Of a DNA stretch of 64,000 nucleotides, positions 14,949-57,852 are shown in pieces; position 1 is the first letter of the stretch, and each line of letters begins with the position of its first letter. Position numbers and translations under genes: made by a program. Under the pieces are notes generated by a model. The model had not been told where the DNA came from, ran no database searches, and saw only the letters and a program-made list of their open reading frames with translations. The stretch spans positions 11,228-75,227 of the forward strand of contig CAYTKR010000005.1 of NCBI GenBank assembly GCA_964438295.1, written 5' to 3'. This stretch comes from an uncultured Anaerolineales bacterium. GTDB lineage: Bacteria > Chloroflexota > Anaerolineae > Anaerolineales > UBA11858.

Positions 14949-15641
14949 TTATCCGATGCCATTCAGTATCATCTCGACCATGGCATCGACGACACGTTCT
15001 TGAGGCATATCGGCATCGGTGACCTGGAAGTAATCATTGATGAAGGAGAATAGCAGCGCATCTCCGACAGCGATCATCAAGGCGTTGATCACCCGCACCG
15101 TAGCATCGAAGTCCACATCGGGGCGGATTTCGCCGCGCTCAACCGCCTGGGTCAGAATCCCTTCGACAGTCCCACGCATTGCTTTTGAAATTGGGCGGAT
15201 GATGCTATCGGAAAGCGCGGGATCTCCCTGGTAAGCGGCGCGGCCAAAGTAGCGCGCCAGCCCGGCTTCGGTCTGGCTCCACTCTACCCCGCCCAAAATA
15301 TAGTAGCGCAAGCCTTCGTCAAGAGGAAGTGCCGACAACATAGGGGTGAACTGGTCGAACAAATCTACCATATAGCGTACGCACAAGGCTGTGGTGAATT
15401 CGAGCAATCCATCGCGGTTGCGGAAATATTGGTAGAGTGATCCCACCGAGACATCGGCCCGACGAGCGACCTCTTTGATATTCAGGGAAGTTGGGCCTTT
15501 CTCGCTGGCTTCTTCCAGGATGGCATGCATGACTGCCTGCTGACGTTCAGGGTCAAGCCGCCGAAACGTACGCGTGACCAAACCTTCCTGCTCGAACTGC
15601 AAGATATGGACGTGAATTTGTGACCAATCGGATATCAGCAT
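14949..15641 (-). CDS. TetR/AcrR family transcriptional regulator
   Basis: The N-terminal HTH is NIKEVARRADVSVGSLYQYFRNRDGLL. Confidence 0.9.
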   Translation of the reverse strand: MLISDWSQIHVHILQFEQEGLVTRTFRRLDPERQQAVMHAILEEASEKGPTSLNIKEVARRADVSVGSLYQYFRNRDGLLEFTTALCVRYMVDLFDQFTPMLSALPLDEGLRYYILGGVEWSQTEAGLARYFGRAAYQGDPALSDSIIRPISKAMRGTVEGILTQAVERGEIRPDVDFDATVRVINALMIAVGDALLFSFINDYFQVTDADMPQERVVDAMVEMILNGIG

Positions 15642-19624: not shown

Positions 19625-20623
19625 TTACAAATACTTTGCCAGCGAATCCCAGTCAAATTCGATGTAAGGTACCTCATTCTCGATATTCTCTTTGCGACCA
19701 CGCATATACCTCTCGCACCAGGGATCGTCCAGGTTCTCCACGTCCATACTGCGGTGGATCACGGCGTATAGGTCGATCTCGCGCAGTTTCAAGAAGTGGG
19801 GCAATTCGTTCAGCCACACTGGGTCAAGCTGATTTTCTGTTCTGTATCCCCGCAGAAAATCGCCCATGAATTCATAGGTAAACGCGGTTTTATCTTCTTT
19901 CCACATGGCGGCGTAGAACAATACCATAGCGATATCGTAAATGAACCAGCCATAGACGCTATCATCAAAGTCAAAGAGCGTGATTTGCCCTTCGTGGACA
20001 TAGAAATTGGCCCCGTGAGCATCCTGGTGGATCAACCCATACCCATCCCGATCTTTGGGGAGCGCTTCAAAATGGGGCATCAATGTCTGGAATTTTGAGA
20101 GGGCAACTGCTTCCGATGCGGGTAGCCAATCTTCGAGATCCAAGTTGCCATGGGATTTCCATTCTGGCCGACGCCAGGAGGGGTTAGCGGGGGCGTATCC
20201 TTTGGTCAGGGTGTGGATACGGCCGATGACCTGCCCATAGTGTTCTACAAATGCCGGTGTCCAATCGATTTCCCATGAAGGCACCCCCTGCGCCTTGACG
20301 AAGGCCGTCGCCAGAAATTGCCCCCCCTGACCGTCGTCGATGGCTTCGACCAGGTCCCCGCTTTGGGAATAGATGGCCCTCGAAACCGAAGCGCCACCCT
20401 GGGCTAAGTAATTGATCCAATCCACTTCCCCGGCAATCAGGTCGGGCGAACGCCTAAGGCTGTGCCCTATTCGCAGAATGAATTCTCCATCTTGATGAGA
20501 ATATTCATAGATGAAACTCTCAAAACCATCCAATAGTTCGATTTTGTCTTTCTCAATGCCGAAGCGAACCATCGCCTCTTGCAAGATGTCATCGTTGTAA
20601 CGTTGAACAATTTTGGGTTCCAT
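19625..20623 (-). CDS. Phosphotransferase (APH/choline-kinase-like) family protein
   Basis: GLIHQDAHGANFYV (HxDxxxxN catalytic loop) and LFDFDDS (DxD). Confidence 0.75.
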   Translation of the reverse strand: MEPKIVQRYNDDILQEAMVRFGIEKDKIELLDGFESFIYEYSHQDGEFILRIGHSLRRSPDLIAGEVDWINYLAQGGASVSRAIYSQSGDLVEAIDDGQGGQFLATAFVKAQGVPSWEIDWTPAFVEHYGQVIGRIHTLTKGYAPANPSWRRPEWKSHGNLDLEDWLPASEAVALSKFQTLMPHFEALPKDRDGYGLIHQDAHGANFYVHEGQITLFDFDDSVYGWFIYDIAMVLFYAAMWKEDKTAFTYEFMGDFLRGYRTENQLDPVWLNELPHFLKLREIDLYAVIHRSMDVENLDDPWCERYMRGRKENIENEVPYIEFDWDSLAKYL

Positions 20624-38530: not shown

Positions 38531-40120
38531 CTAAGGACGGTATCCAGCGATAAAATTGTCATAGACATAGGGGCACATCCCGTTGACGACCAGGAACTCA
38601 TCATCATTTGGTGTCCAGGAACTGTCGCCTTTTTTCATTTCCTCCGTGCAGTCCGTTGTGCCATAATGATCATAATTCGCATAATATCCAAAGGAATGCA
38701 TGATCTCATGAATTACTGTTGCGGCACTGAAATAATTCGGTGTGGAGGCATAGAGATCATCGGCCGCGGTTTGACACATCGAATACCCGTTTTTCATTAC
38801 GCAAGGTGTTCCAGGCTGGTTCGAGCATTCACCCCCGATTGAGACATCGCTGATGACATTCTCCCCCCATTCATCGTAGCCGCAACGGGCATATTTGTGG
38901 CTGTAATGATTGAACATCACATAGATTTGGTTGTCATTACCAAACGCGTCGACAAAATGATTTTTGAATGAAGTTGGCCCTTCGATAGCATAGGTGAAGC
39001 CTCCCATAGTCCGAGCAAAGTTATCCGCTCCGTACGAGAAAATGACAAGACTGTCAGGGATATCATTTGTCGTTTGTGCTATATAACATTGTGGGATGCT
39101 ATCACGCATAAGATAGTCTGAACTTTGCTCTTGAGTAAACTCAACTGTCCCATAATTTTGTAATCGAATTACGAATCCGGTTAAGTTGAAGAGAATGTTA
39201 CTAGCATCTTGCAACGTGGCTTCTGTTTGTTGCAGGGTCACGGGTTCAGAACTAAGGTCAACCAACGCATCGAAGGAAAAAACGCCCTTGGGCGGACTTC
39301 CATCGGGCGTCGCGAAGGTTTGGGGTGTGTAATCGGTCATCGTGAACACGAAGGGGCACTCAGCATAATCCCCTGATAGAAATATTTCCACATCTGCTCG
39401 TTTGACCCATGCATCATACGTCGAGCCATTTGCAGCATCCCATGAAACGTGCAGGAAGCTGTCGCGCTCTTCAATGACGGTAAAGAATAGCTCAACTTGA
39501 AATGATCCTGAACTTTGTCCACCAGGCCCATCATAAGCGTCGATATGTTGCCCAGCAGGCAGCGTAAAAGAATCTGGGGTATCCGCAACTTGAGAAGACG
39601 AACTCTCAGGAAGCCCTGTGTCGGTAACGATATAAGAAAGGCGGATCAAATCAGCTGCCAACGCTTCTACTCGGAATATGATGTAATCACCCGGTTTGGC
39701 GTGCCGCTTGTAAACATACAGGCCACCTTCTATCAATTCGACACAAAATGGAGAGAAATCATCATCTACAAGGCCCATCTCTGCGGGATTGAGGTCGCTC
39801 AAATCTCCACTGAAACCGCTAAAGAGGTAGAAACCGCCTTGCTGTGGTGGAAAGTTCGCCCAGGCCTCAAATTCAAAACAGTCAGAATTTGTGGTTCGGA
39901 CGTAGAGATCGCCGCCAATTTGATACCCTCTTTCACCGCTAACAAAATCATAACTCTCGAGATCGAATAGTTCAACCTCACCAGATGCAATAACAGCATT
40001 CATCACGCTGAACCCTTTGGTAAGATCGATTGACTGAGGTGGGGCAGACGAAAAACTCAATAAGAGTGCGACGGTTAGAAGCATTAGTGGAATTCGAAAA
40101 AGGGAGGTGATGGTCTTCAT
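38531..40120 (-). CDS. Secreted protein with a C-terminal HExxH zincin motif
   Basis: Signal peptide MKTITSLFRIPLMLLTVALLLSFSSA. HEIMH is encoded at 38696-38710 (CATGAGATCATGCAT on the minus strand), in the context VIHEIMHSFGYY. The start was moved to the ATG at 40120 with an AGGAG RBS. Confidence 0.6.
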   Translation of the reverse strand: MKTITSLFRIPLMLLTVALLLSFSSAPPQSIDLTKGFSVMNAVIASGEVELFDLESYDFVSGERGYQIGGDLYVRTTNSDCFEFEAWANFPPQQGGFYLFSGFSGDLSDLNPAEMGLVDDDFSPFCVELIEGGLYVYKRHAKPGDYIIFRVEALAADLIRLSYIVTDTGLPESSSSQVADTPDSFTLPAGQHIDAYDGPGGQSSGSFQVELFFTVIEERDSFLHVSWDAANGSTYDAWVKRADVEIFLSGDYAECPFVFTMTDYTPQTFATPDGSPPKGVFSFDALVDLSSEPVTLQQTEATLQDASNILFNLTGFVIRLQNYGTVEFTQEQSSDYLMRDSIPQCYIAQTTNDIPDSLVIFSYGADNFARTMGGFTYAIEGPTSFKNHFVDAFGNDNQIYVMFNHYSHKYARCGYDEWGENVISDVSIGGECSNQPGTPCVMKNGYSMCQTAADDLYASTPNYFSAATVIHEIMHSFGYYANYDHYGTTDCTEEMKKGDSSWTPNDDEFLVVNGMCPYVYDNFIAGYRP

Positions 40121-40289
40121 ACTAAATCTCCTTTGGCGATGAAGATACATGCGGGGAACCTGATATTCAATTTTCGTAATTCTATTGGACCAATTAAGCG
40201 CATCTAGGCAATCGGACAAAATTACCCTAATTACTTGGATAATCATACTATAAATGTGGTAATCACATCAAGACCGCGAACTCACAGCA

Positions 40290-40346
40290 TTAGTAGTAGT
40301 TGCGGATGTACTTCCCAGACCAGCTTTCTTTGTTGAAAGATTGTTC
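40290..40346 (-). pseudogene. 3'-terminal remnant of a paralog of gene 44303-45472
   Basis: Encodes ...EQSFNKESWSGKYIRNYY*, compared with ...DSFNNESWSGEYIHNYSYCGE* at the end of 44303-45472. By hand alignment, 38 of 45 nt are identical. The frame is closed by stop codons about 25 codons upstream. Confidence 0.6.
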
Positions 40347-40435
40347 TAATTCCATCGATGCTTGCACCTAAATTGCCGGGCTAGCGCCACGATGAGAAAT
40401 AACAGAAATCCCCCTAAGAATTCAATTGTAAACAT
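40346..40435 (-). CDS. Possible 29-aa single-TM micro-protein (speculative)
   Basis: MFTIEFLGGFLLFLIVALARQFRCKHRWN, with AAGGAT 8 nt upstream of the ATG, 13 nt after the upstream stop codon. There is no further support. Confidence 0.2.
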   Translation of the reverse strand: MFTIEFLGGFLLFLIVALARQFRCKHRWN

Positions 40436-40448
40436 GGCTTTGCATCCT

Positions 40449-43355
40449 TTAGTAATCCACCTTTCCTCCTCCTGAATTGAAGATATCCAGCTTGCCTCCA
40501 GATGGAGGTTTACTGCCAGATGCGGTTTTCACCGGGGTGTGCTCCCAAATGTTGTTTTTAGCGAGGTAAGTATGCCGAGTTTGATTCCAGAAGCCTGCAT
40601 CGGTGTTGCTGAAAAATGTGTTGCCTCCGGGGCTTGAGCGGCCTCCAACACCAAAATCACCCATCCAGGTATCTACCATCCAGACCCCGATTCTATTGGT
40701 AAGGAATTCGTTCCCTGCGAATCTTGGATGATAGGTACCGTGCCCTTCCACTCCGATATCATTTCCTTGAAAGATATTCACTGAGACATGGGGAGATGAT
40801 TTGCCTTTGTATAGCAATCCAGCTTTGTTATTATTCTCTATGAAGTTGCCACTGAGCGTTGGACCGCAGGGTTTATCACCAAGAACTTCTATCCCCACCT
40901 CGTTGTCTACAATATGAGATTCCATAATGAACCCGCTCGAACTCCCAACGAGCTGCACCCCGGTTCCTTTTGTAGCCGTTGTAAATTTACATCCTAGAAT
41001 ATGCGGTTCGCCGTTATCGAATAGCAGGCAGGCGCCACCAGCCTTGTTTTCCACCATAACGCGACAAAGCTTGGCGTGCATCGGGGCTACAATCGCGGTC
41101 TGATATGCTTTCCCATCAATCGTGACTGTGCCCTCACCTCGAATGATAGAGCCTTCGTAGAGCCCTTCAACCCAAACATTAGCGGGCAGCTCAATTGGGA
41201 ATATTTCTCCGGCAGTGGCATCATAGGTTCCTGCTCCAAGATGGATTGTACTGCCAGGTTTTGCGATGCTTTTTGCTTTGGTCAAGGTACGGAAGGGTTT
41301 CGATTGGCTGCCGTCACCGCTGCTGTCATTGCCCTGGCCATCCACATAGATCTTCATTTTGCGCGGCGTCAGGTGCGTCAACCATACGGCGCGCATCTCT
41401 GAGAATGCGTGGAAATATATTTCCCAGGCCGCGGCATATCTTGCTACCCGGGCTACCATTTTCGGGTCAGGTTTTTTCCCTTTTTCGTGTACCAGGATGA
41501 AAGCTGAACGGAAATGTTTCGGGCTGTTTTGCACATAAGGTTTGCGCAGGCGGTTTTTGCCATCCCAGTCCGCCAGATTATCATGAGCCAAATTCACACG
41601 TTTTCCTTTTACCCGCAGCTGGTTGTATACCGGTGTAGACGTTTGTATGAACCAGGCATCGATCAACTCGCGCGTACTGCAGAGACCCATTAGATATAAA
41701 TCCAGCGAGCCGAAACAGGCTTCCCCTTTCAAAGCACGCGCGAATACTCCTGGGTTGCCCAGCACTTCGGACCATGTTGCACCTTTCATGACAGAGTGTT
41801 TACCCTGCCCACCCCAAGGCGGAACTACCGCCTGTGTGTGCACATTTCGCAGCCAATGAATTCCATTACTAAGTGAGGGTTGCATCTTATTTCCATCCCA
41901 ATACTGGTTAAAAGCCAACCATTTATGACCTTGCTCATGAGCCAGAAGATGGATGCCATACCACGATACTGTATCTGGCATTAGTTTGTAGGGATGATCG
42001 TTCAATGCCCTTGCGCTACCCATTTTTATTAGGTTTGTCACGTTTGTGAACCCTTTTCCAAGTTGGGTGTTGCGACGATCAAATTTCTTTAAACCGATTC
42101 CTTCGATATCGTTGAAAAGAGGCCAGTTGGAATAGAGCGGGTCAGTTAGGTCTTCGTTGGAGAACATCACCAGGGTATCGTAGTCGTCATCATAATCTTT
42201 GTAGAATGCTTTTGCCACTTCTACGACATTCAAGTCTTTATAACCACCAAATTCCTCGTAGATGCAACCATAGGCTGATTGTTTGGTGAGATACACCGAT
42301 TCATACAGATCTCTGGGAGAAAGAGGTTTCGATTTGTCCCCTGGAGATACACCCACCAAAACTTTGTCAGCGTCAGCCGATTTGTAGTTAAAAGTAATTT
42401 TGTTCGTTTTACCGTCATCGAATAATACTACCTGGAAGCTGCAGCGTTTTTGAGATCCCTTCAGGGATATTCCCACCCAGGTCACTACCAGTTGATCCTT
42501 ACTTTCGTGCAGGATGATCTCTCCTCCTTGTGATGGGTCTAGGTCCGTCCAAAGGGGTGCAATAGCAGGCAGGTTCTTGCGGAATTCCCATTTATCAATC
42601 GACGGGCGCGTATCTCCTTTGGCAAAGGTCAAATTACCATTGGAGTTGACGTAGATAGACCGATAGGTTTTCCTGTAGAAGCGGAATTTGAATGACCCCT
42701 TGAACGAATAATGATGGCTGGCGTTATCTGTGTTGATGGGGATTTTGAATCCCCCGGAGGTAGCGTGCACTTTTTCAAAGGAACCATCGTATTGTCCTGG
42801 CGAGAGCCCCTGAAGATCGAAACCGGTATTTCCATTGCGCATAAAAAGAATTCCCTTACCTATGAAATCGACCGGGTTACGCATTAACATGCTGCCGGTA
42901 TCTTCCACCAGGGCAACATTCAAATGAGGCATTTGGGCCAAGGGTTTGGTATTTCCAATCTCGGTATTTTCGACAACGTCTTCCCTGAGTTCATCCAGCA
43001 GCGGTTTGGAAATATCTGCAAGGGTAGGAGATTTATTCGTTATATCTTCTAGGGCTGTTGCGTAGATTTCTCCAAAATCTTGATCGTCCTCTACCAGCAC
43101 AGGACGATCTATCGCTGGCCAACGATTCTCCCCCATTACAAGCGGTTCCATATCGATGCCTTGCTCTGCCAACAACGCCATCTGCTCTTCGTATCGTTGA
43201 AACAATTCCTCTGGGTCTGCTGATTGACTGCAATAATGCTCCTCGGAAATTTCTACCTCATCCCCCTCCGCCTGGCTGAACTGAAATAACCTGACGATGG
43301 CTGCGGCGATTCGCAAGGCCAATTTCCACATAAATTCTAAGATAGACATTGTCAT
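40449..43355 (-). CDS. Large multidomain protein: acidic N-terminal region, NIDO-like domain, HExxH zincin domain and C-terminal right-handed beta-helix (DUF1565-like)
   Basis: FRFYRKTYRSIYVNSNGNLTF...PAIAPLWTDLD (NIDO-like). HEQGH is encoded at 41925-41939. YVDGQGNDSSGDGSQSKPFRTLTKA plus repeated G/N-rich turns indicate a beta-helix. An AAGGAGA RBS is present. There is no lipobox. Confidence 0.6.
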   Translation of the reverse strand: MTMSILEFMWKLALRIAAAIVRLFQFSQAEGDEVEISEEHYCSQSADPEELFQRYEEQMALLAEQGIDMEPLVMGENRWPAIDRPVLVEDDQDFGEIYATALEDITNKSPTLADISKPLLDELREDVVENTEIGNTKPLAQMPHLNVALVEDTGSMLMRNPVDFIGKGILFMRNGNTGFDLQGLSPGQYDGSFEKVHATSGGFKIPINTDNASHHYSFKGSFKFRFYRKTYRSIYVNSNGNLTFAKGDTRPSIDKWEFRKNLPAIAPLWTDLDPSQGGEIILHESKDQLVVTWVGISLKGSQKRCSFQVVLFDDGKTNKITFNYKSADADKVLVGVSPGDKSKPLSPRDLYESVYLTKQSAYGCIYEEFGGYKDLNVVEVAKAFYKDYDDDYDTLVMFSNEDLTDPLYSNWPLFNDIEGIGLKKFDRRNTQLGKGFTNVTNLIKMGSARALNDHPYKLMPDTVSWYGIHLLAHEQGHKWLAFNQYWDGNKMQPSLSNGIHWLRNVHTQAVVPPWGGQGKHSVMKGATWSEVLGNPGVFARALKGEACFGSLDLYLMGLCSTRELIDAWFIQTSTPVYNQLRVKGKRVNLAHDNLADWDGKNRLRKPYVQNSPKHFRSAFILVHEKGKKPDPKMVARVARYAAAWEIYFHAFSEMRAVWLTHLTPRKMKIYVDGQGNDSSGDGSQSKPFRTLTKAKSIAKPGSTIHLGAGTYDATAGEIFPIELPANVWVEGLYEGSIIRGEGTVTIDGKAYQTAIVAPMHAKLCRVMVENKAGGACLLFDNGEPHILGCKFTTATKGTGVQLVGSSSGFIMESHIVDNEVGIEVLGDKPCGPTLSGNFIENNNKAGLLYKGKSSPHVSVNIFQGNDIGVEGHGTYHPRFAGNEFLTNRIGVWMVDTWMGDFGVGGRSSPGGNTFFSNTDAGFWNQTRHTYLAKNNIWEHTPVKTASGSKPPSGGKLDIFNSGGGKVDY

Positions 43356-43562
43356 TTCTCCTTTTTATGGCTAATCAAATTAATCAGTTATTGCTTTCCT
43401 TGGATCAGATTTGCCTGAAAAAGGGTGCTTCCCCGTCTGTGAAGTCACATTGTTCAAATCAGTTGATAATGATAATTTTCAATTTTCACTCTCCTTGATA
43501 GAAATAAACGGGAATGTGCTATTGACATCCAACAATATCCAATCAACAAAAATGGTGTTCTG

Positions 43563-44210
43563 TTAGGGAAATATGTAGGCATCAAAAACAATATACCCGC
43601 TGGCTAACATCTGATCGTCGCGCATGACGAAGAAGCCGTAACTGCCTGCATTGGTTTGGAAGCATAAGTAAGCGTCAGTAATTGGAGCCAGTGGATCAGC
43701 GGTCAGGGCGGCGGCGCGGCATTGGTTGAGAGATGGCGCGCTCAAAAACGCGTGTCCAGAGAAAGTGGCGCCGTTCTGAGGGCTGAGGATCACATTGCCA
43801 TCCAGGCAGACATCGGCTGTGGCGTCGGCAGCCGTGAAGAGCACGTCCATGTCATAACAGGTGCCACCATTGAAGGCCATGCTCGACCAGGCGGGGCCGA
43901 GCGGGTCGGGGGCAAACGCATCAGGGGGTGTGGCTGTTGGTGGTATCGCAGTGGGAACCATCGCGGTCGGTGGAACATCTGTTGGCGGGATTGCCGAGGG
44001 TGCTACAGCGGTTGGTGGTATCCCGGTTGGTGGGATAGGCGATGTTTGTGCCTGCAAGGTCATTTGTATGAATTTGGCCTGGGATGTTTGGGCGACTGCG
44101 GTATTGAACGTTGATTGATCGTCTTGCGGGGGAGGTCCCGTGATGATGCAAGCCAATGTTATTACAATAGATAACGCTACTCCAACGAGGGCTTTTCTTC
44201 GAATTTTCAT
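43563..44210 (-). CDS. Small lipoprotein with a Pro-rich (A/V)IPPT repeat linker and a C-terminal module shared with 51849-53732 and 38531-40120
   Basis: Lipobox TLAC, the repeat IPPTGIPPTAVAPSAIPPTDVPPTAMVPTAIPPTATPP, and a C-terminal ...YLCFQTNAGSYGFFVMRDD. Confidence 0.6.
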   Translation of the reverse strand: MKIRRKALVGVALSIVITLACIITGPPPQDDQSTFNTAVAQTSQAKFIQMTLQAQTSPIPPTGIPPTAVAPSAIPPTDVPPTAMVPTAIPPTATPPDAFAPDPLGPAWSSMAFNGGTCYDMDVLFTAADATADVCLDGNVILSPQNGATFSGHAFLSAPSLNQCRAAALTADPLAPITDAYLCFQTNAGSYGFFVMRDDQMLASGYIVFDAYIFP

Positions 44211-44250
44211 ATGAGTTTCTCAAATTTTTCTAATTGCCAGAGTAAACTTT

Positions 44251-44297
44251 CAGATTTGGGGGTAGGGAGTGCGGAGCTCTCCCTACCCCCAAATCTG
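44251..44297 (-). other. 19-bp perfect hairpin between cluster genes (attenuator or terminator-like, no U-tract)
   Basis: CAGATTTGGGGGTAGGGAG-n9-CTCCCTACCCCCAAATCTG. Confidence 0.5.
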
Positions 44298-44302
44298 CCA
44301 TT

Positions 44303-45472
44303 CTATTCACCACAATACGAATAATTGTGGATGTACTCACCAGACCAGCTTTCGTTGTTGAATGAATCTTCCGTTCTGACTTTATACACCAGTGATCCGG
44401 AGAAGCCATCGGTTTCGATGCCGACCTGGCTGACCCATTGATCGCCGCTAGTGTTGTTCATCTGGATCCAGGCCCAGCCCGCTTCGTTGTGGTTGAACCA
44501 GAACTCTGCCCAGATCACGCCCGAAGGATCGCTCAGGCCAGCCTCGCCGTAGATGGTACAGCCTTCCCAGAAATGGGTGACATAGTTGATGGTCGGGCCG
44601 GTTGTATCCGATGGAGCTGGCTCATAGACTTCCACAGTTGTCCAATAGTCTGTGGCAGAACCATCCATCTCGATCACTTGCAAGTTGTACGTGTAGGTTT
44701 CAGCTGGGCATTCCGAATCGCTGCCGCTGGCGTTCACGGAGACTCCTTCGAAATAGACTGCCTGGAAATCTCCATAGACATTCCAATTCAAAGTGCTGCA
44801 TTCACCCTGGTTGATATACGGAGGCGCGGCCCAAAAATCTGCCGAGGATTCCGTATATGCCGTGGCTGTGGGCGTGGGGGTGTCGCTGGGGGTTGCGGTT
44901 GGTGTTAGCGTTTCGGTTGGAGTGTGTGAAGCCGTAGGCGTTGGAGTGGGAGTTTCAGAGGAAGCTGCCGTAGGCGTAGGTGTCCCGGTGGGTTCTGCAT
45001 CCTCGTCGTCTTGGGGAACGATTTCGGCAGCGGGTTCGCAGGTGCCGATGCAGAAGGTCACTGAGGAAGGGCTGCTCGACCCGCCCCCGGTGCTGTGTGC
45101 TGTGGCCTCAAGGGTGTACTCGCCTTCAGCCGTGGGAATCCATTCCTGATCGAGACGCGCCATCAGGCCACTGCCATCCGTACTGATAGAGTAGGCTGTG
45201 GCTTCCGGCAATGGTTCGCCATTGATGCTCAAATTGAACCCTGAGATGCCATTGGCATCCGTGGCATAGACCACAAAATTGATCGTCTGTTTAGGCAGAT
45301 CCATGCCGTTGAATGGGAATTCGATCCAAACCGTAGTGCCCGTGCTAGCGCCATCTTGTAGCACGGCGCGGTTCAGGGCGAATCCGCTCAGGAGCAGTGA
45401 AACCATCACCACGGCAACCCACACCAACGGAGTCCGGCAATCATTCTTAGGGAAGGAATTTAATTTCTTCAT
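44303..45472 (-). CDS. Secreted Ig-like-domain protein with a TPTPT linker
   Basis: Signal peptide, an N-terminal Ig-like domain similar to that of 45489-48239, the linker PTGTPTPTAASSETPTPTPT..., and two C-terminal modules shared with 48251-50245. An AGGAGA RBS is present. Confidence 0.6.
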   Translation of the reverse strand: MKKLNSFPKNDCRTPLVWVAVVMVSLLLSGFALNRAVLQDGASTGTTVWIEFPFNGMDLPKQTINFVVYATDANGISGFNLSINGEPLPEATAYSISTDGSGLMARLDQEWIPTAEGEYTLEATAHSTGGGSSSPSSVTFCIGTCEPAAEIVPQDDEDAEPTGTPTPTAASSETPTPTPTASHTPTETLTPTATPSDTPTPTATAYTESSADFWAAPPYINQGECSTLNWNVYGDFQAVYFEGVSVNASGSDSECPAETYTYNLQVIEMDGSATDYWTTVEVYEPAPSDTTGPTINYVTHFWEGCTIYGEAGLSDPSGVIWAEFWFNHNEAGWAWIQMNNTSGDQWVSQVGIETDGFSGSLVYKVRTEDSFNNESWSGEYIHNYSYCGE

Positions 45473-45488
45473 CTTATATCTCCTGCTG

Positions 45489-48239
45489 TTATTTCATCTG
45501 CTCGATTGCGCTGCCTCGGACAATGAGCAGGTTGTTCCCTGGGTTGGGATCATTGAAGTCAGGTTTCTTCGGATCATGGTCTTCGAGATATGGAAGAACT
45601 CTTACCTGGAAACCTCGCTCGCATTTACCTAGGTTCTTGCCACAATAGTAGGCAAAGTTCTGGTCGACGTAATCACCGAGCGAGATCCATTGCGGCAGGT
45701 TCGATTGTACGTGTAAGACGGTTCTGCCTTCCCATGGACCGTCAACTTTGAATTTGCCATCATCGTCATAGAGTCCCCAGGTGACGCCGTATTGGATGCG
45801 ATTGTTGAACAAGGGTTCCGGTCCATAATTTTCAACATAGGCAAATAAGCGCAGACCGATGCGTTGGAGCTTGGTGACGGCAAGATCAGCCTGGGCGTGG
45901 ACGACGCCGCCACTGGAAGTGACGGTTGGTTTTTGACCTGTGAGTTCAACTGTCAGTTCACAGTTGCCATCGGGGGTGCGCATGGTGAATGTCCAGGGGT
46001 CTTGTTTCCATGAACTGACCGGAGGCACCAGACCAGCGCCTTTACAAACGCTATCCTGAGCCACGTAGCCCTGGTTGTCGACGCCGCTGACCGAGAAGCG
46101 GATGGTCATGAATTCTTTTTCGGCTAATGCCATACCCAAGGCATTATGCGGTCTGCGGCCATCGAAAGTCCAGGGTTTCAGATCGTAACTGGCTTCTTTG
46201 AGCCAATAGGCGCCTGATGTGCGCCGGAAATCGTTGACATAGACCTTGAGTTGCGCCCCGCCTGAGCCATGGGGCATTTTGTTGATCTTCAGAGTTTTGA
46301 AGGTCACTCCAGCGATAGCGTAAGCCGCTTCGGTATCGCCCTCGACCTTGTTGCTGCGACCGGATTCGCCCTGCCTGCCATACGCGCTGACCTCGTAGCG
46401 ATACAGGCAGCCCATCGGTTCGCCCCGGAAGAGGATTTCGGTCTCTTGCTGGGGGGAGGCGATGATCACAGGGGCGTAAATTTGGGAGTCCATGCCGGGG
46501 CAACTGTATGTGCGATACAGCAGGAAACCGTCGATGTCTTTGCCCGCACCGCTAAAGTGCCAATCCCAGGTGATCACGCGCGAGTTGGTTGTGGTGAGCT
46601 TGACTCGCAGGTTGGTCGGCGCAGGGAAAGCAGCCGTGGTGCCTTTGCCGGTCCATTTGAGATTTTCGACCCAAATCTTGTACTCGACTTTGAAGTTGTC
46701 GTTCTGGGCGATGTAATAGCTTTGGTCTTTGATATCGATATCACCTGGTAAATGAGAGTTGTAAGCCTCTCCAAGATTTGTAGGGCCGCGGGAGTCGCTC
46801 CAGGAAGCCAGGGTGTATGCCGATGACCAAAATTTGGCCGTAATATATTGGTCGGGGTTGAGGAACAGGGAGGCGGCAACCGGGGTGACTTCATCTGACA
46901 TTTGCCACTTCCCTGTGGGGATGTAACTCCCCTGATCTTTGGGAAGCCGTCGACCGGGACTGTTATTGATGCTATACCAAAGGGCAGCAAATCCAGCCCC
47001 GCCGCGTTTGGGTTCCACGCCACGCGCTTGGATGTGAATGTATTTGACGCGCTCAGGATCATCGATGCAGGCCGAGGTCGGTTTGACTTCCACGAAAACC
47101 GGCGCGCTGCGGGATGTACTGATCATGTTCTGTTGAATCACACCTAAAGCAACCTGGTCATGCGGGATGATATCAACCTTACCCTGAGCTTCTACAGAGT
47201 ACTCATAGGTGCCCGGATAGGGAACGTCATCGACGTAGCTGGTCTGGTTTGCAGCTGTGGCAGCCACATATTGCGCTGAAACCTGATCGGGTTTGAGACG
47301 CCGGTAGATGGCAAAGCCGGTTTCATCGGTGGAATTATCTTTCCAGGTCAGCGTGACTTTGCAGTCGCTGGTCATCACAGTCAAGGAATCTGGCGCAGAA
47401 AGGTCAGGATTAGTGCCGTTCATAACCGCTTGAAAGCCAGGGAATAAATTGGGATCGATTTGGGCGACCTGACCTTGGCCGGGTTGGAAGCCAGGGAGTG
47501 ATACGGCGCTGGCCGGCGGTTGAATTGGTAGCAGCCCTGGCAAAATATTTACTTGTCCACCTTGCTGACCTCCTTGTTGCCCCCCCTGTTGGCCCGCGGG
47601 AGGTTTGGCGGGTTGTGACGGAGGCTGGTTGGATCGCGCCCCGGGCACTACCACCACTTGCCCCGGTTTGAGCGCACCACTGACCCCAGGGTTGGCATCC
47701 TGGATGGCAGCGGCGGTACTGCCCGTTTCCTGGGCAACGCTGTCAACGGTATCGCCATCCTGGGCGATAAAGTGTATTTGTTGGGGTTTGTCCGGCACAG
47801 AAGCCTCGATGTTGCTGACGGTGACATGGACCGCCAGGGATTCTCCTAGCGCCCCCGCACTGTTGTACGCTCGGGCAACCATGGCATAGGTGCCGGGTTC
47901 GGTGCCCATCATGCCATAGCTCAAGGTCAGCGGGTTGACCCCATTGACTTCGGCCTCAGGTGCTGCTTGGGAGAGTACCAGAACGCCATCGACCCACAGG
48001 TCCAGGCGTACGACACCTAGAACATCGCGCGCCGTAACAGAAATGGGAAAGGGTTGGTTGAGATCCACCTGAATGCCGGCGGCAGGCTCTTGGAAAGCAA
48101 CCACAGGTCCAGGAACTGATACCTGTGTAGCATCCTCAGTAGGCGCGCCGCCGAGTCCAGGCATGTTACAGGCTAGCGTCGCCAAAAATAGGGTAGCGGC
48201 AATCCAGAGAAAGGTATTGATAACACGTTTTCTTTTCAT
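45489..48239 (-). CDS. Large lipoprotein: Ig-like domain, LysM, Gly/Gln linker, two FN3-like domains and a C-terminal region of about 400 aa of unknown function
   Basis: Lipobox TLAC. LysM is HFIAQDGDTVDSVAQETGSTAAAIQDANPG...GQVVVVPG. There is a GGQQGGQQGGQQGGQ linker. VTLTWKDNSTDETGFAIYRR is FN3-like. An AGGAGG RBS lies before the ATG at 48239. Confidence 0.65.
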   Translation of the reverse strand: MKRKRVINTFLWIAATLFLATLACNMPGLGGAPTEDATQVSVPGPVVAFQEPAAGIQVDLNQPFPISVTARDVLGVVRLDLWVDGVLVLSQAAPEAEVNGVNPLTLSYGMMGTEPGTYAMVARAYNSAGALGESLAVHVTVSNIEASVPDKPQQIHFIAQDGDTVDSVAQETGSTAAAIQDANPGVSGALKPGQVVVVPGARSNQPPSQPAKPPAGQQGGQQGGQQGGQVNILPGLLPIQPPASAVSLPGFQPGQGQVAQIDPNLFPGFQAVMNGTNPDLSAPDSLTVMTSDCKVTLTWKDNSTDETGFAIYRRLKPDQVSAQYVAATAANQTSYVDDVPYPGTYEYSVEAQGKVDIIPHDQVALGVIQQNMISTSRSAPVFVEVKPTSACIDDPERVKYIHIQARGVEPKRGGAGFAALWYSINNSPGRRLPKDQGSYIPTGKWQMSDEVTPVAASLFLNPDQYITAKFWSSAYTLASWSDSRGPTNLGEAYNSHLPGDIDIKDQSYYIAQNDNFKVEYKIWVENLKWTGKGTTAAFPAPTNLRVKLTTTNSRVITWDWHFSGAGKDIDGFLLYRTYSCPGMDSQIYAPVIIASPQQETEILFRGEPMGCLYRYEVSAYGRQGESGRSNKVEGDTEAAYAIAGVTFKTLKINKMPHGSGGAQLKVYVNDFRRTSGAYWLKEASYDLKPWTFDGRRPHNALGMALAEKEFMTIRFSVSGVDNQGYVAQDSVCKGAGLVPPVSSWKQDPWTFTMRTPDGNCELTVELTGQKPTVTSSGGVVHAQADLAVTKLQRIGLRLFAYVENYGPEPLFNNRIQYGVTWGLYDDDGKFKVDGPWEGRTVLHVQSNLPQWISLGDYVDQNFAYYCGKNLGKCERGFQVRVLPYLEDHDPKKPDFNDPNPGNNLLIVRGSAIEQMK

Positions 48240-48250
48240 ATTCAGCCTCC

Positions 48251-50245
48251 TTATGGGCACCAGCCATTCCAGACATACTCGATCCAGGACCAGCTGGGTG
48301 GCCCGTTTGGCATCTGGATCATGCCAGCCATAGGCCCTGTGTAATAGTAAGTACCATCAAACCACTCGGTTCCAGCGGCGTTTTCCACTCTGAAAGTCAC
48401 CGAGTAAACTCCTGAATTGTGGGATACCAAGTAATAGTAACCGCTGTCCGACAAGCCATTGTCGATATAGAAGTCGAAACCGCCGTTGGCGTAAAAATCG
48501 AACGCTGCACAATGAATGATGGTATTTTCGTCCCAGAATTCTCCAGCATAGTACCCGCCCTGCCCATAATTGGTGAGCATCTGCGGCAAAGTTGGATCAG
48601 ATAGTGTGACCGACCCCGACTGATCGGTGAAGCTGCCCGTTGGCAGGGGGTAGTAGGCTTGTTTTTGGCCGCCGCTCCAAAAGCCGACACCGGCAGCGTA
48701 GGTGTGGTTGCCCCCTGATACCTGAACGTCCAAGGAGTGACCAATCATGATCGTCTGGGCTTCGCTGAGGATGACATCCTGGCCATCGATAAGCAGTTCT
48801 ACGACCGGGTGAGATGAATTGTTGGTAAAAGTCACTGTGCCCCCTGCGCCCCCTCCCGGGTTGTTGCCTGCTCCCGACGGGATGATCTGGATATCGACCT
48901 GGGTCCACTTTTCAGATGTATTGTCACAACTTGCGCCCCAGGCGGTAAGGAAATGCGTGTACAGGGCATTGCCTTCATTGGGGTCCACAAAATAGCTATG
49001 TGTGTCAGTGGCGTTGACTTCGACGTTATCTAGGAAGACCTTGCAGGCATCCCAGACTTCCCACTCCAGCAGGATCATATCACCCGGTGCCGCGCTGACG
49101 GGTCCCAGGAAGTAGCGAATATCGGGTTCAGGGGCCACAGGCGGCTGCCCGACTACGCCGCCGCTGCAATAGAACAGCGACATCGACATTAACGGCGTAT
49201 CCGTTTTCATCCCGTTTTTGTCGACCACCTGAATGTAGAAATCAATCGCACCGTCATCCATACCCATTACGTTAGGTGCTTCTGCGCCAGCATCAATATC
49301 CCCAGCGTAGTCGCCGATACCGAGCTGGTACATAGGTGTTGAGTAATTTCCCCAGGAACCAGCAGCACTGGAATAACCATAGTAGATTGTCGCCGAAGCA
49401 ATCTGATCCAAGGGATCGATAGTCGCTTGCACATTGAGGTTGGTGATCTCGTTGACACAGGGACCATAATAGACTTCAGTTTTGGGGTAAAGCTGAATAT
49501 TGGTTATGCTGATCGAACTCGAACTCGCTCCACCTGGAGCGCCGCTGGGAGCACCCCCCGGGGCCTGCGCGCCACCACCACACGGCCAGACCTCAACCCC
49601 GTAGACGAAGCCATCCGGTTCTGTTTGGATGTTTCCGGCGGCATCCATGGCAAAGATCTGGTACTGCATGGTGCCATCATTGCCTTTCAATTCGCCATTG
49701 GCATACGCGGTGACATCGATGGTCACCTGGTATTGTTTCCCCCCGGTGGAGGCCATATTAGCCTGGTACCACTGGTTGCCGCCGATGCCCGCTGAATAGC
49801 TGAGATACTGATAATTGACCCAAACCTGAGCCAGGTTGCCAGAATCATCGCTGGCGTCGGCGTAGATTGTAACGGCGGTCGGCCCGCAGCCGTTTTGGTA
49901 GTACACCTTTGTCGCAGATGTATTGACATTAGAAATTACTGGGGCAGTTTTGTCGCTGGCAGAGGCCGCTTGCGTGGGACGGCCAGTTGGGGTGGGTGGG
50001 GGAATGGGGGTCTGTACATTTGAGCCACTCGCACTCCCGACGGGCGTTACGGCCTGGATTGTAACTGGGATGAGGGGCGATTGATTGTTCCCGGGTGCCG
50101 CTTGAACGGTCAGAGCCACGGATGTCGCGGCGGCGTCAACATCCAGGTCGACACCTTGCGTGATGTTGCAGGCTAAGATCGCCAGGAGTAAAACCAGCAT
50201 GCTGGAGAAGATAAACCTTTGGTTGTTGGTGTGTGCGGAACTCAT
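48251..50245 (-). CDS. Lipoprotein with two tandem copies of a ~120-aa Cys-bounded module and an Ig-like module
   Basis: Lipobox ILAC. The two repeated modules end in ...VWPCGG and ...LFYCSGG. The ATG at 50245 overlaps the upstream stop codon (ATGA) and is preceded by AAGGAGA. Confidence 0.6.
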   Translation of the reverse strand: MSSAHTNNQRFIFSSMLVLLLAILACNITQGVDLDVDAAATSVALTVQAAPGNNQSPLIPVTIQAVTPVGSASGSNVQTPIPPPTPTGRPTQAASASDKTAPVISNVNTSATKVYYQNGCGPTAVTIYADASDDSGNLAQVWVNYQYLSYSAGIGGNQWYQANMASTGGKQYQVTIDVTAYANGELKGNDGTMQYQIFAMDAAGNIQTEPDGFVYGVEVWPCGGGAQAPGGAPSGAPGGASSSSISITNIQLYPKTEVYYGPCVNEITNLNVQATIDPLDQIASATIYYGYSSAAGSWGNYSTPMYQLGIGDYAGDIDAGAEAPNVMGMDDGAIDFYIQVVDKNGMKTDTPLMSMSLFYCSGGVVGQPPVAPEPDIRYFLGPVSAAPGDMILLEWEVWDACKVFLDNVEVNATDTHSYFVDPNEGNALYTHFLTAWGASCDNTSEKWTQVDIQIIPSGAGNNPGGGAGGTVTFTNNSSHPVVELLIDGQDVILSEAQTIMIGHSLDVQVSGGNHTYAAGVGFWSGGQKQAYYPLPTGSFTDQSGSVTLSDPTLPQMLTNYGQGGYYAGEFWDENTIIHCAAFDFYANGGFDFYIDNGLSDSGYYYLVSHNSGVYSVTFRVENAAGTEWFDGTYYYTGPMAGMIQMPNGPPSWSWIEYVWNGWCP

Positions 50246-54171: not shown

Positions 54172-57100
54172 TTACGCCGCTGACGAGCCCCTGGTCTCGA
54201 CCTGGTGCCCGGCATCGCGTAATACCGCCAGATCACGTTTGATGGTACGGTCGCTGACCTCCAAGACATTGGCCAGATTTTTAATGGTCGGAATTGCCCC
54301 CTGAGCTTTGGCTTCTTCCAGCAGGCGCAGGGTACGATGCTGGCGGCGTGCGGCTTTGCCCTCCACATGTTCATCTTCTGGAGACTTCAGCGTCCAGGTC
54401 ACCTCAGCTAATTCATCATCCATCAGCTCACGACCAAGGGGAGCATCGGCGCGCGGCAGGTGCACCATTTCTCTGAGCATGGGATGTCCGGCGATGTATT
54501 CGTGGTAGTCATCCCATATGGGTTTGCCGGGGCTAATGTCATGTAGATATGCGCGCTGCCTCTCAGGGTCGGAGATGCTGTCCGCAAATTGAGTCAATAA
54601 AGCGTAAGCGTCAACAAGAGCAGCCAGGCCGCCTTCTGTTTCTCCTGCTTCGAGGTAAGCCCGGTATGCACCTAGATATGCTAATAGCGGGTCACCAATG
54701 CCCTCGTGGCCGTGTTCTGATATCCAAGAGAGCACTTGTTGTGCATACACCAGCGCTTCTTGGTGATTCCCCTCCGCAGTGGCTACCCTCGCCAGACCCG
54801 CTAAAGGATCATTTGCCATGGCGTGCAAGCCAACCTCCTGGCGAAGTTCCAAACCTTGCTGGTATGCGTCACGCGCATCTTCGAGTTCTGACAACTTTTC
54901 GAGCACCAGGCCCAAGAACACCCAGCCGTACCCTTCTAAGCGACGGTCGCCAATGGCTTGTCCAAGATCGCAAACTTGCAGAAGATTCTCCCGGGCGGTG
55001 TGTGCGTCACCCGAGTCAAAATATGCAATCGAGAGATTGTATAAGCTGGAAGCCTCCAGGCGGGGATCACCCAGTGCACGTCTCAATTCCAGGGCGATCT
55101 GATGGTGCTCGATCGCGGCCGGAAAATCTGCCAGATAGTGGAATACGCCGCCCAGATTATTATGGATATCCGATAATACAACATGATCGCCGGTTGGCTG
55201 GCCGATCTCTAAGGCGCGTGATGAATAGTCCAGAGCCTGATCATACTTCCCGCAATCAAAAGATACTACCCCCAAGGCGTTCAAACTAACCGCTTGGGCT
55301 GAGAGGTCATCGTTTTCCAAACCCAATTGATAGGCAATTTCCAAGTGCTCTCTGGCTTGGGCGTATTCTCCATGCTGGCGCAGCATATGCCCCCATTTCA
55401 AATGCGCCTGGTGTTCCGACTTGCGATCGGAAGCGCTTTTGGCTTGTTCCACCGCGTCTTGAACTGCATGGAGCGCGGCCGGGTAGTCACTGATGGCCTC
55501 CCAGTACTCAGTCCAACGCAGGGCTAACTCGAGTTGCCGGGCAGGTGTCCCTATGTCCGGATCCTCAATTAATTGATCTAATGCAACCAAATCTTCTTTT
55601 TGATGTTGGCGCTCACCGATGATGGCATACATGGATTCTCTGGAAAGCAGAAGTTCAATTTGCAGATTTGGGTCTACATTACCAGGCACTTGATCAAAGG
55701 CATCTAATGCCCGAGAATAGTAGAGCACTGCCTCGCGATTTGCGAAAAGTGATTTTGCCCGATCCCCAGCCATCCGGTTGTGGAGTGTTGCCTGTTCCCA
55801 GACACTGCCTTCCAAAAAATGATGCGCAAGCAATTCGGTATGATCCGCAGGGCGGGCCTGATTGTCTAAGGACAGTTGAATATTTTTTGCCGCGCGTCGA
55901 TGCAGGATTTGGCGTTTTTCCGCAGGGATAGCTTCATACGCCACCTGGCGGATCTTGTCATGGCTGAAACGATATGTGTTTGGAGCTTCTTCCAGAAATC
56001 GACGCCTGACCAAATGATTGGCAATCGTAAGAACCTGACTGATCTCCATCCCAGTGGTGTTGCTCAAAAGAGAAAAATTAAAATCACGACCTAATACCGC
56101 AGCCGCACTCAAAACTGCCCTTTCGTCCTCCGTCAAACGGGTCAGGCGAGTGGCGATAGTTCGTTCCACAGCCTGAGGGAGGGGTAGTTCCCCATAATCG
56201 GAGGTGCTATCATCCCATGGCGTGTGCCAGTCACCGCCGGCGTCTTGAGTCAATAAGCCCTCATCATGTAAGGCCCGCAAGGTCTCCAGAATGAACAGCG
56301 GATTCCCTAGAGTTTCCTGGTAGAGGCGCTTTTCGAAAAGCGGCACTGCTTCGGAGAGACCCAGGCTGCGACGAACCAGCTCGCCAGCCGCATCGGGTGA
56401 CAACCGTACCAGGGCGAAGTGTTTTTTTACTCCCGAGCGGCTCAAAGCGCCTAATCTATCCCAAAGCGATCCACGAATTTGGGCGTCTTCACCGCGGAAG
56501 GTACCAATCACCAATATGCGGCTTTTCTGTAGGAAAGGGCTCAAGGCGATCAAAAGATCGATATCATCTTCGTAGGCCCAGTGCAGGTCTTCCAAAACGA
56601 GTAGGACTGGTGTGATCTGGCCCCAGGCAGCGAGCACTTTTCCCACGGCTTGAACCAGCCGGTCGTGCTCGTTCTTAGGAGTTAGCGTTGGGGCGGGTGT
56701 AAGTCCAGGGAATTCATCCTCTAGTTTAGGGATTAGTGGATATAGAACCCTGAACCAGATATTGTCGATCAACTGAGATAATTGATTGACCCTCAAAGAT
56801 GTCAAGCCGCTGGTAATTGCTTCGAAGATCGAGGCAAAAGGAGTGGAAACATCTCCTTCCTGGTTGTGGCCCCATAAGGATTGCACCCCACGCCAATCAG
56901 CGTCGCGCATGATCTCTTTCAACAGGCGGGTTTTTCCGATGCCAGCTTCCCCCTCAACCAAAACAATGCCGCCTGTTCCTTGAATTGTCTCTTCAAAGAA
57001 ATGGATGACTGCTTCTCTCTCCTCCTCCCTCCCTATAAGGGGCAGTTGTGCTGGACGTGATGTGTCCAGAGACCAAGGTGAGGCTGGTGTTACGACTATG

Positions 57101-57852
57101 GGTAAATAAGGCGCTTGACTATCGGGAGCTTGCAGGGCGATCTCTTGAGCCACTGCTCGGGTTCGTTGATCCACGTCGATTCCCAGCTCGTCCTCAAAGA
57201 TCTTGCGGCAGGTTTCGAATTGGGTGAGAGCAGCTTCCGGGCGCTTGAGTGCGAAATACAGGCGCATCACTTCTCGGTGGGCTGCTTCGCGATAAGGATC
57301 AACATGTGCCAGTTCGACGGCATAATCCAAGGCTTGCGTGTACTGCCTCTTCGATTTCTCATAATCGACCAGTTGCTCCAGCGCCTGCAAATACAATTCT
57401 CGCAATCGTTCACGGGCTGCGAACACCCAGTCATCATATAAACCCTCCAGCAAATCTCCCCGGTAGAGATCAATAGCTTGCTGTAAGGCTAGTGTATAGG
57501 CCTCCGCATTTTCTGTGGAATCTCCCACTAGACTCTCGAAAGTTTCGATATCGATCCACAAATTGGCACTTTCTGAGATCTGGATGTATTGTGTATCGCC
57601 CTCGATTATGTCTGGCAGCACATTGCGGATGCGCCAGAGGGACTGCGTCAACGCTCTTCGAGCACGGGCCTCATCCATTTCTGGCCAGAATATTCCTGCG
57701 ATTTTGAGCCGCGAATGGGGATGTGGGCGGTGCAGCAACAAATAAGCCAGTAAACTGCGCGCAGATGTAGATCCTGAGAAATCGAGCTGTTTGTCGTTTC
57801 GCCAGAGCGTCAAAGTGCCGAAAAGATTAACTCGTATTTGGGAAGAGGGCAT
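54172..57852 (-). CDS. SARP-type (OmpR-like wHTH + BTAD) - AAA/STAND ATPase - TPR regulator with an extra C-terminal DeoR-like HTH
   Basis: The N-terminus (LFGTLTLWRNDKQL...SLLAYLLLH...) is followed by BTAD (DLYRGDLLEG...REAAHREVMRLY). Walker A is EGEAGIGKT and Walker B is LLVLEDLHWA. There are more than 10 TPR-like repeats. The C-terminus is TIKNLANVLEVSDRTIKRDLAVLRDAG. Confidence 0.8.
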   Translation of the reverse strand: MPSSQIRVNLFGTLTLWRNDKQLDFSGSTSARSLLAYLLLHRPHPHSRLKIAGIFWPEMDEARARRALTQSLWRIRNVLPDIIEGDTQYIQISESANLWIDIETFESLVGDSTENAEAYTLALQQAIDLYRGDLLEGLYDDWVFAARERLRELYLQALEQLVDYEKSKRQYTQALDYAVELAHVDPYREAAHREVMRLYFALKRPEAALTQFETCRKIFEDELGIDVDQRTRAVAQEIALQAPDSQAPYLPIVVTPASPWSLDTSRPAQLPLIGREEEREAVIHFFEETIQGTGGIVLVEGEAGIGKTRLLKEIMRDADWRGVQSLWGHNQEGDVSTPFASIFEAITSGLTSLRVNQLSQLIDNIWFRVLYPLIPKLEDEFPGLTPAPTLTPKNEHDRLVQAVGKVLAAWGQITPVLLVLEDLHWAYEDDIDLLIALSPFLQKSRILVIGTFRGEDAQIRGSLWDRLGALSRSGVKKHFALVRLSPDAAGELVRRSLGLSEAVPLFEKRLYQETLGNPLFILETLRALHDEGLLTQDAGGDWHTPWDDSTSDYGELPLPQAVERTIATRLTRLTEDERAVLSAAAVLGRDFNFSLLSNTTGMEISQVLTIANHLVRRRFLEEAPNTYRFSHDKIRQVAYEAIPAEKRQILHRRAAKNIQLSLDNQARPADHTELLAHHFLEGSVWEQATLHNRMAGDRAKSLFANREAVLYYSRALDAFDQVPGNVDPNLQIELLLSRESMYAIIGERQHQKEDLVALDQLIEDPDIGTPARQLELALRWTEYWEAISDYPAALHAVQDAVEQAKSASDRKSEHQAHLKWGHMLRQHGEYAQAREHLEIAYQLGLENDDLSAQAVSLNALGVVSFDCGKYDQALDYSSRALEIGQPTGDHVVLSDIHNNLGGVFHYLADFPAAIEHHQIALELRRALGDPRLEASSLYNLSIAYFDSGDAHTARENLLQVCDLGQAIGDRRLEGYGWVFLGLVLEKLSELEDARDAYQQGLELRQEVGLHAMANDPLAGLARVATAEGNHQEALVYAQQVLSWISEHGHEGIGDPLLAYLGAYRAYLEAGETEGGLAALVDAYALLTQFADSISDPERQRAYLHDISPGKPIWDDYHEYIAGHPMLREMVHLPRADAPLGRELMDDELAEVTWTLKSPEDEHVEGKAARRQHRTLRLLEEAKAQGAIPTIKNLANVLEVSDRTIKRDLAVLRDAGHQVETRGSSAA

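Follow-up and report, generated by a model that had tools for sequence, protein, structure and literature searches.

Apparent remnants of two lost genes in a spacer of a secreted-protein gene cluster from an uncultured Anaerolineales bacterium

A short spacer in a cluster of genes for secreted proteins appears to hold the ends of two genes that are otherwise gone. By its alignments, a stretch of 65 nt between the 968-aa and 529-aa genes is probably all that is left of another, diverged gene of the Ig-like family to which the resident 389-aa protein belongs: its last 22 codons, no longer functional. Adjoining it, and missed in the initial annotation, is what reads as the 5' stub of a second gene of the DUF1565 family. 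We call these the 3' relic and the 5' relic. Both homologies have sharp boundaries, and the site that contains them is variable among related clusters. We think it reasonably likely that a block running from the second DUF1565 gene to the second Ig-like gene was deleted, leaving a scar that has drifted since. Features are listed in Table 1 by their position in the window, the whole 64-kb stretch of DNA that was analyzed.

Table 1. Features of the spacer and of the genes around it (window coordinates)
Feature	Position	Strand	Description
Intact 389-aa secreted protein gene	44303-45472	minus	Weak Ig-like hit (Big_7); the 3' relic corresponds to its last 22 codons (44307-44371)
215-aa secreted protein gene	43563-44210	minus	Follows the 389-aa gene in L007, L010, L013, L016 and L025
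Intact 968-aa DUF1565/beta-helix/NIDO gene	40449-43355	minus	Domains from Pfam hits; 85% and 82% identical to orthologues; the relics come directly after it
5' relic	40355-40449	minus	RBS (AAGGA), ATG (40433-40435) and about 27 codons of a putative second DUF1565/beta-helix-family gene
29-aa hydrophobic ORF, survivor of the 5' relic	40346-40435	minus	MFTIEFLGGFLLFLIVALARQFRCKHRWN
Junction of the two relics	40347-40354	minus	8 nt; the relics lie in different reading frames and are not fused in frame
Candidate 21-25-aa ORF	40290-40367	minus	MELEQSFNKESWSGKYIRNYY
3' relic	40282-40346	minus	Apparent last 22 codons of a lost gene of the 389-aa family, with a class-A C-terminus; reads EQSFNKESWSGKYIRNYY, stop, CCE
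Premature TAA in the 3' relic	40290-40292	minus	Codon is Tyr (TAT/TAC) in all five orthologues
Part of the spacer orthologous to L007	40200-40243	minus	75% over 44 nt to L007 15129-15172
529-aa secreted protein gene	38531-40120	minus	Downstream of the relics

Identification of the 3' relic

The initial annotation had read the minus strand at 40296-40340 as SFNKESWSGKYIRNY, followed by Y and by the TAA at 40290-40292, and this reading is borne out. Its counts of 38 of 45 nucleotides and 12 of 15 residues identical to the end of the 389-aa gene hold when set out in a codon table. The blastn and tblastn comparison that it proposed was run, and the match is both significant and longer than had been noted. 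In a formal alignment, 40282-40346 and 44307-44371 are identical at 51 of 65 nucleotides (78%), with no gaps. The E value is 1.4e-11 by blastn with the whole 64-kb window as the database, and 1e-4 by tblastn. The 389-aa gene ends in SFNNESWSGEYIHNYSYCGE and a stop codon. The homology runs three codons beyond the TAA of the relic (TAA TGC TGT GAG vs TAT TGT GGT GAA), and it stops at the stop codon of the intact gene. On both flanks of the match, identity is 2-5 of 15 in each 15-nt block, which is the chance level. Gapped local alignment and a register scan around the 65 nt found no further similarity.

A repeat search returned the relic and the tail of the 389-aa gene as the sole long direct repeat in the 38-46 kb region. 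The two copies are co-oriented and 4025 nt apart, with two genes between them. When all 31 intergenic regions of the window were scanned by tblastn, the relic was the only hit at E<1e-3. A 48-nt match at 19853-19900 (E=0.014) was judged to be due to chance, as was a weak match of the C-terminus of the 215-aa protein on the opposite strand at 40164-40205 (E~0.1). Searches of the other spacers of the cluster and of the gaps in relatives found no relics. The spacer with the relic is 100% identical in three independent metagenome assemblies (L001-L003), so the relic is not an assembly artefact.

An inverted repeat at 44240-44308, with 33-nt arms that are 82% complementary and a 3-nt loop, starts where the 389-aa gene ends, at its stop codon, and is probably a transcript-end hairpin. 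No duplicate of this hairpin was found beside the relic.

Source and decay of the 3' relic

The family of the 389-aa protein gave 97 hits, in Anaerolineales and Anaerolineae MAGs. A comparison of 50 proteins of about 390 aa showed two types of C-terminal domain, which end in ...YCGE/D and in ...SCDG/GCGGY. Both types can be present as paralogues within one cluster, as in L013 and L016, and neither has a match in Pfam. The class A C-terminus is ...NESWSGEY.HNY.YCGE (also given as ...NESWSG.Y.HNY.YCGE), and that of class B is ...GNQSESS..Y.Y.SCDG. The relic, which reads FNKESWSGKYIRNYY followed by a stop and CCE, fits class A; the class-B tail does not fit. The tail of the lost Ig-like gene would be expected to follow the pattern ...FNKESWSGKYIRNY.YC.E.

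The relic is identical to the tails of the resident gene, L007, L010, L013, and L016 at 51, 50, 51, 50, and 48 of 65 positions, respectively. At the 19 sites that vary among these orthologues, it is no closer to the resident gene than to the others. For example, its AAC TAC is that of L010 and L016, and the resident gene, L007, and L013 have AAT TAT. As the relic is equidistant from all orthologue tails, its source was a separate, diverged homologue, and the relic was not copied recently from the resident gene. Of the 14 positions at which the relic and the resident gene differ, nine are third codon positions (P=0.017), as would be expected if the two sequences diverged while still coding. The earlier view of the fragment as a fossil tail that marks a rearrangement is thus supported: the fragment is the 3' end of a homologue, with similarity that stops at the stop codon and excludes the hairpin.

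Nine changes in the 65 nt are specific to the relic, and six of these fall at the 46 sites that are invariant in all five orthologues. The replacements are D to Q, N to K, E to K, H to R, S/A to Y, G to C, and Tyr to stop, some of them at residues that are invariant in the family. The variant residues K, K, R, and Y were found in 0 of the 50 family tails checked. Changes at invariant sites together with a nonsense codon point to relaxed constraint, in a sample as small as 65 nt. The relic has the other properties of a pseudogene fragment as well: its similarity is confined to coding sequence, only 22 of about 389 codons are left, and its ORF is not conserved in relatives.

The neutral distance between the window and L007 is 0.28-0.33 at 4-fold sites, or about 0.14-0.16 per lineage if it is split evenly. 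The fraction of relic-specific changes, 0.14, is close to half of this distance. By this comparison, inactivation of the relic may be about as old as the split between the window and L007, or younger; with relics as short as 65 and 95 nt, such dating and polarity are rough.

The 5' relic and the layout of the spacer

The sequence from 40449 to 40355 aligns with L016 16393-16487 at 60 of 95 nucleotides (63%), without gaps. This part of L016 holds the RBS, the ATG, and the first 27 codons of a 967-aa DUF1565 gene. In the alignment, ATG falls on ATG and AAGGA falls on AAGGAGG. The alignment score of 25 was reached by 0 of 2000 shuffles (maximum 18). The 962-aa orthologue in L024 also matches at its start, with 78% identity over 41 nt. 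The N-terminal peptides are MFTIEFLGGFLLFLIVALARQFR in the relic, MFIIEFLVGLIVKIIEFFAKLF in L024, and MFASEFFWGLLILIAVAVVWLF in L016; in short, MFTIEFLGG... in the relic compares with MFIIEFLVG... and MFASEFFWG.... The homology to DUF1565 genes thus covers the RBS, the start codon, and the hydrophobic N-terminus in register. No DNA-level similarity to the start of the resident 968-aa gene was found, and the N-terminus of the relic resembles the L016/L024 type, not the resident type. At 63% over 95 nt, and with protein-level E values of only 1e-3 to 0.08, the case for the 5' relic is weaker than that for the 3' relic.

Read along the minus strand, the spacer consists of the stop codon of the 968-aa gene, the 5' stub (95 nt), 8 nt, the 3' stub (65 nt), 38 nt, the 44 nt that are orthologous to the L007 spacer, 66 nt, and the RBS of the 529-aa gene. 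No microhomology could be defined at the junction of the relics. RNA folding of the spacer gave no structure signal (z=0.22). Scans of the spacer found no terminator and no Rfam hit, and a promoter scan returned nothing notable. The reading frame of the 529-aa gene is open for 42 codons upstream of its probable start (40121-40246) and is listed as 571 aa. The probable start is the ATG at 40118-40120, which follows AAAGGAG and is also suggested by the alignment with the L007 orthologue.

Related loci

Gene orders in the related loci are given in Table 2. A search for related loci with the 529-aa protein gave two among genome contigs; among metagenome contigs it gave none.

Table 2. Gene order in the window and in related loci. 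A, 389-aa gene; B, 215-aa gene; D, 968-aa gene; C, 529-aa gene; M, convergent metallophosphoesterase gene; numbers are other genes by length
Locus	Identity	Order
Window, L007	L007: A 93%	A B D C
L013 and L023 (one MAG)	A 66%, D 85%	A B C, then D, M (convergent)
L016	A 63%	A B 559 662 (C-like) D 903
L025	C 74%	A B 213 C, M (convergent)
L010	A 76%	A B 419 154 738 571, M (convergent)
L024	D ~60%	D 902 436, M (convergent)
L030	A 51%	A 552 293 (B-like)

Neither relic is present in the closest relative, L007, which has 93% protein identity and the same gene order. The 3' relic is absent from L007, L008, and L022, which all have the gene order of the window, and also from L010, L013, L016, L019, and L023-L030. 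It was found only in contigs that are 100% identical. A scan of JGI metagenome contigs with the degenerate pattern F/Y-N-x-E-S-W-S-G-[EK]-Y-x-[HR...]-N-Y gave a single match, which is the tail of an ordinary orthologue.

In the slot between the 215-aa and 529-aa genes (40121-43562 in the window), L013 has no gene, L025 a 213-aa gene, L016 a 559-aa gene, L010 three genes (one for a Trypsin_2 protein), and the window and L007 the DUF1565 gene. By these gene orders, the slot is a variable site in an otherwise conserved cluster, and the DUF1565 gene has moved. The spacers between the 215-aa and DUF1565 genes of the window and L007 are about 90% identical over their whole length of ~207 nt (manual count from the alignment), which argues that the insertion of the DUF1565 gene is common to both by descent.

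From the stop codon of the DUF1565 gene onward the two spacers diverge, with 205 nt in the window vs 108 nt in L007. The L007 spacer (15021-15070, also in L008, L020, and L022) begins with a relic of ~45 nt of the 3' end of the metallophosphoesterase gene, on the other strand, and these ~45 nt are homologous to the sequence after the DUF1565 gene in L023. The peptides before the stop are LISLVEEGIQDGTI in the L007 relic, ...LQNLAEEIIQGD in L023, and ...LQNLASEIIQESTER in the phosphoesterase of the window. This relic therefore suggests that the DUF1565 gene moved together with its flanks. After it, the L007 spacer has two strong hairpins (z=-6), one of which is a terminator.

Identities along the cluster are mosaic. 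The 3' third of the DUF1565 gene of the window is 82-88% identical to that of L023 and 73-77% to that of L007. Within 38531-48260, L013 is the next-closest relative for the C-terminal domain of the 389-aa protein and for the 215-aa gene, and L010 for the 923-aa and 672-aa genes and the N-terminus of the 389-aa protein. Such a mosaic argues for repeated recombination between lineages. From the mosaic DUF1565 gene and the changing nearest relative, recombination tracts appear to end in or near the spacer.

The synteny comparison proposed in the initial annotation was carried out. No sampled relative has an intact paralogue at the site of the relic (L007, L010, L013/L023, L016, L019, L024, L025, L027, L029, and L030). 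Among the relatives sampled, a 529-like gene is never immediately preceded by an Ig-like family gene, and a DUF1565 gene is never followed by one. The 436-aa gene that follows the DUF1565 gene in L024 was considered and is not a member of the 389-aa family. In L030, a gene of the 389-aa family is followed by a 536-like gene.

The end of L013 (13540-13615) and the start of L023 (1-60) are long poly-G and poly-C runs that are complementary. Both contigs are from the MAG GCA_964622645.1, and the break lies between the 532-aa and 966-aa genes. The contigs are probably adjacent, and the poly-G and poly-C ends are probably one G/C hairpin or a sequencing artefact. A gene for a serine recombinase with Resolvase and Recombinase domains adjoins the cluster in L029 (5198-6853), and one for an IS110-family transposase lies near the cluster in L026 (14278-15336). 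Unlike the surroundings of the clusters in some relatives, the 38-46 kb region of the window has no mobile-element genes. A gene for a BTAD/AAA_16/TPR regulator of ~1220 aa (54172-57852, minus strand) heads the cluster, and its position is conserved in L010 and L025 (1-3422). The cluster, with its large secreted proteins (Big_7, LysM, fn3, and HExxH-like motifs), may be one regulated unit.

Origin of the scar

A 5' stub that lies head-to-tail with a 3' stub, both in the orientation of the operon, is the signature of a single deletion. In the history that we favor, a block with a second DUF1565 gene at one end and a second Ig-like gene at the other would once have separated the 968-aa gene from the 529-aa gene. 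Its home would have been this lineage itself or a related donor that passed on its spacer by recombination. One deletion would have removed everything from early in the DUF1565 gene to late in the downstream Ig-like gene, and what was left would have drifted neutrally. Two elements of this history are inferred: that the deletion was one event, and that the lost genes once stood intact at precisely this position. Against a block that stood in place is the observation that no sampled relative carries a second DUF1565 gene and a second Ig-like gene in the slot. Further, the presence in L007 of the phosphoesterase relic, and of neither stub, suggests that the patch in the window may be a later replacement and not an ancestral leftover. 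Models of the junction by tandem duplication were rejected; they predict either a junction at the opposite, wrong flank of the intact 968-aa gene or additional copies of the 215-aa gene, which are absent.

Import of a patch is the most serious alternative to deletion of a block in place, and we regard it as possible but unlikely. The lost genes would never have been intact here. Instead, recombination with DNA of a related strain or species would have swapped the first ~108 nt of the spacer for a ~205-nt piece, which either carried the junction of the two stubs already or was stitched during repair from two short templated pieces. That the window and L007 have a common DUF1565 insertion and differ right from its stop codon fits such a swap, as does the retention in L007 of the flank expected from the earlier gene context. 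The closer similarity of the 3' third of the DUF1565 gene to L023 than to L007 places the end of a recombination tract near the spacer, and the N-terminus of the 5' stub is of the type found in L016 and L024. Liu et al. (2004, PMC522871) attribute many prokaryotic pseudogenes to failed horizontal transfers. However, import merely moves the deletion to the genome of the donor, and no donor with the junction or with either variant was found in the pattern scan of JGI contigs or among the 50 family tails. The explanation given in the initial annotation, that a paralogue of the Ig-like protein ended here and was truncated or replaced by the arriving gene at 40449-43355, we consider quite improbable. 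The 968-aa gene did arrive here at some time: it is missing from the slot in L010, L013, and L025, and in L016, and apparently in L013/L023 too, it comes after the 529-like gene. The 3' relic does not abut it, however, as the 95-nt stub of another DUF1565-family gene lies between, and L007 has the same insertion with a different downstream flank and no relic.

Functions for the stubs themselves rank lower. The 21-25-aa or 29-aa ORF, or both, could be translated, or the spacer could act as a cis element for the 529-aa gene, and purine-rich motifs do precede the start codons (AGGTG 9 nt before the ATG at 40355 and AAGGA 9 nt before the ATG at 40435). No terminator separates these ORFs from the upstream gene, so transcription is probable. 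Nevertheless, homology to the family tail continues past the stop of the shorter ORF, which identifies this stop as a secondary nonsense mutation. There are also the replacements at family-invariant residues, the absence of the sequence from the nearest relative, and the absence of an RNA structure signal or an Rfam hit in the spacer, and we hold a function of this kind to be very unlikely. A shade less likely again is that the slot is a dedicated exchange site at which secreted-protein genes are swapped, with the stubs as landing pads or donor segments and not debris. Hardly credible is an att-type duplication of a gene 3' end that bounds an inserted element, or a silent gene-conversion cassette for the Ig-like tail. 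The two co-oriented 65-nt copies do bracket two genes, and the cluster does encode secreted or surface proteins with mosaic identities. But copies that are 78% identical are not the near-identical repeats of att sites, Pfam finds no recombinase domain in the two bracketed genes, and the bracketed segment does not behave as a unit: its 215-aa gene stays behind the 389-aa gene in five relatives, and its 968-aa gene is variable. A cassette is opposed by the presence of only one fragment in all intergenic regions of the window, and that with an internal stop, by variant residues that recur in 0 of 50 family tails, and by an expressed gene that is invariant in six assemblies.

Relation to known systems

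In multigene arrays, deletion junctions fuse the 5' end of a gene to the 3' end of a co-oriented downstream gene. The relic pair is likewise a 5' stub and a co-oriented 3' stub, but its fusion is out of frame and the intact prior arrangement was found in no relative sampled. Silent partial cassettes serve gene conversion in Neisseria (pilS) and in Borrelia (vls). Like these, the 3' relic is a promoterless partial copy of a gene for a surface or secreted protein, close to the expressed gene. It differs from them in being a single 22-codon fragment with an internal stop, whose variants are not seen in expressed members, and the expressed tail is constant across assemblies. Islands with attL and attR sites share the direct repeat of a gene 3' end on either side of a ~4-kb segment; the present segment has no integrase, is flanked by repeats of 78% identity, and does not occur as a unit in relatives.

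Intergenic pseudogene fragments are a well-described class in bacterial genomes (PMC522871, PMC3164680, PMC9336565). Like the fragments of this class, the 3' relic is short, truncated, and unannotated, has a nonsense mutation and relaxed substitutions, and is found only via its intact homologue. Unlike the class, it is one of two unrelated gene ends that lie 8 nt apart and do not derive from the resident copies, and its host is a free-living uncultured Anaerolineales bacterium and not an organism with a reduced genome. The relic adds a new case to this ordinary kind of fragment; the joining of two unrelated gene ends is its only slight oddity. A literature search on Anaerolineae plus DUF1565 found no papers.

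Significance

In itself the relic is of little importance, as an unannotated pseudogene fragment in an uncultured bacterium. For annotation, the 21-29-aa ORFs in the spacer should not be called genes without further evidence. Together with the 5' stub and the phosphoesterase relic of L007, the relic is a marker that this cluster of secreted-protein genes (Big_7, LysM, fn3, DUF1565) gains, loses, and relocates genes. These changes concentrate between the 215-aa and 529-aa genes, and the mosaic identities agree with this.
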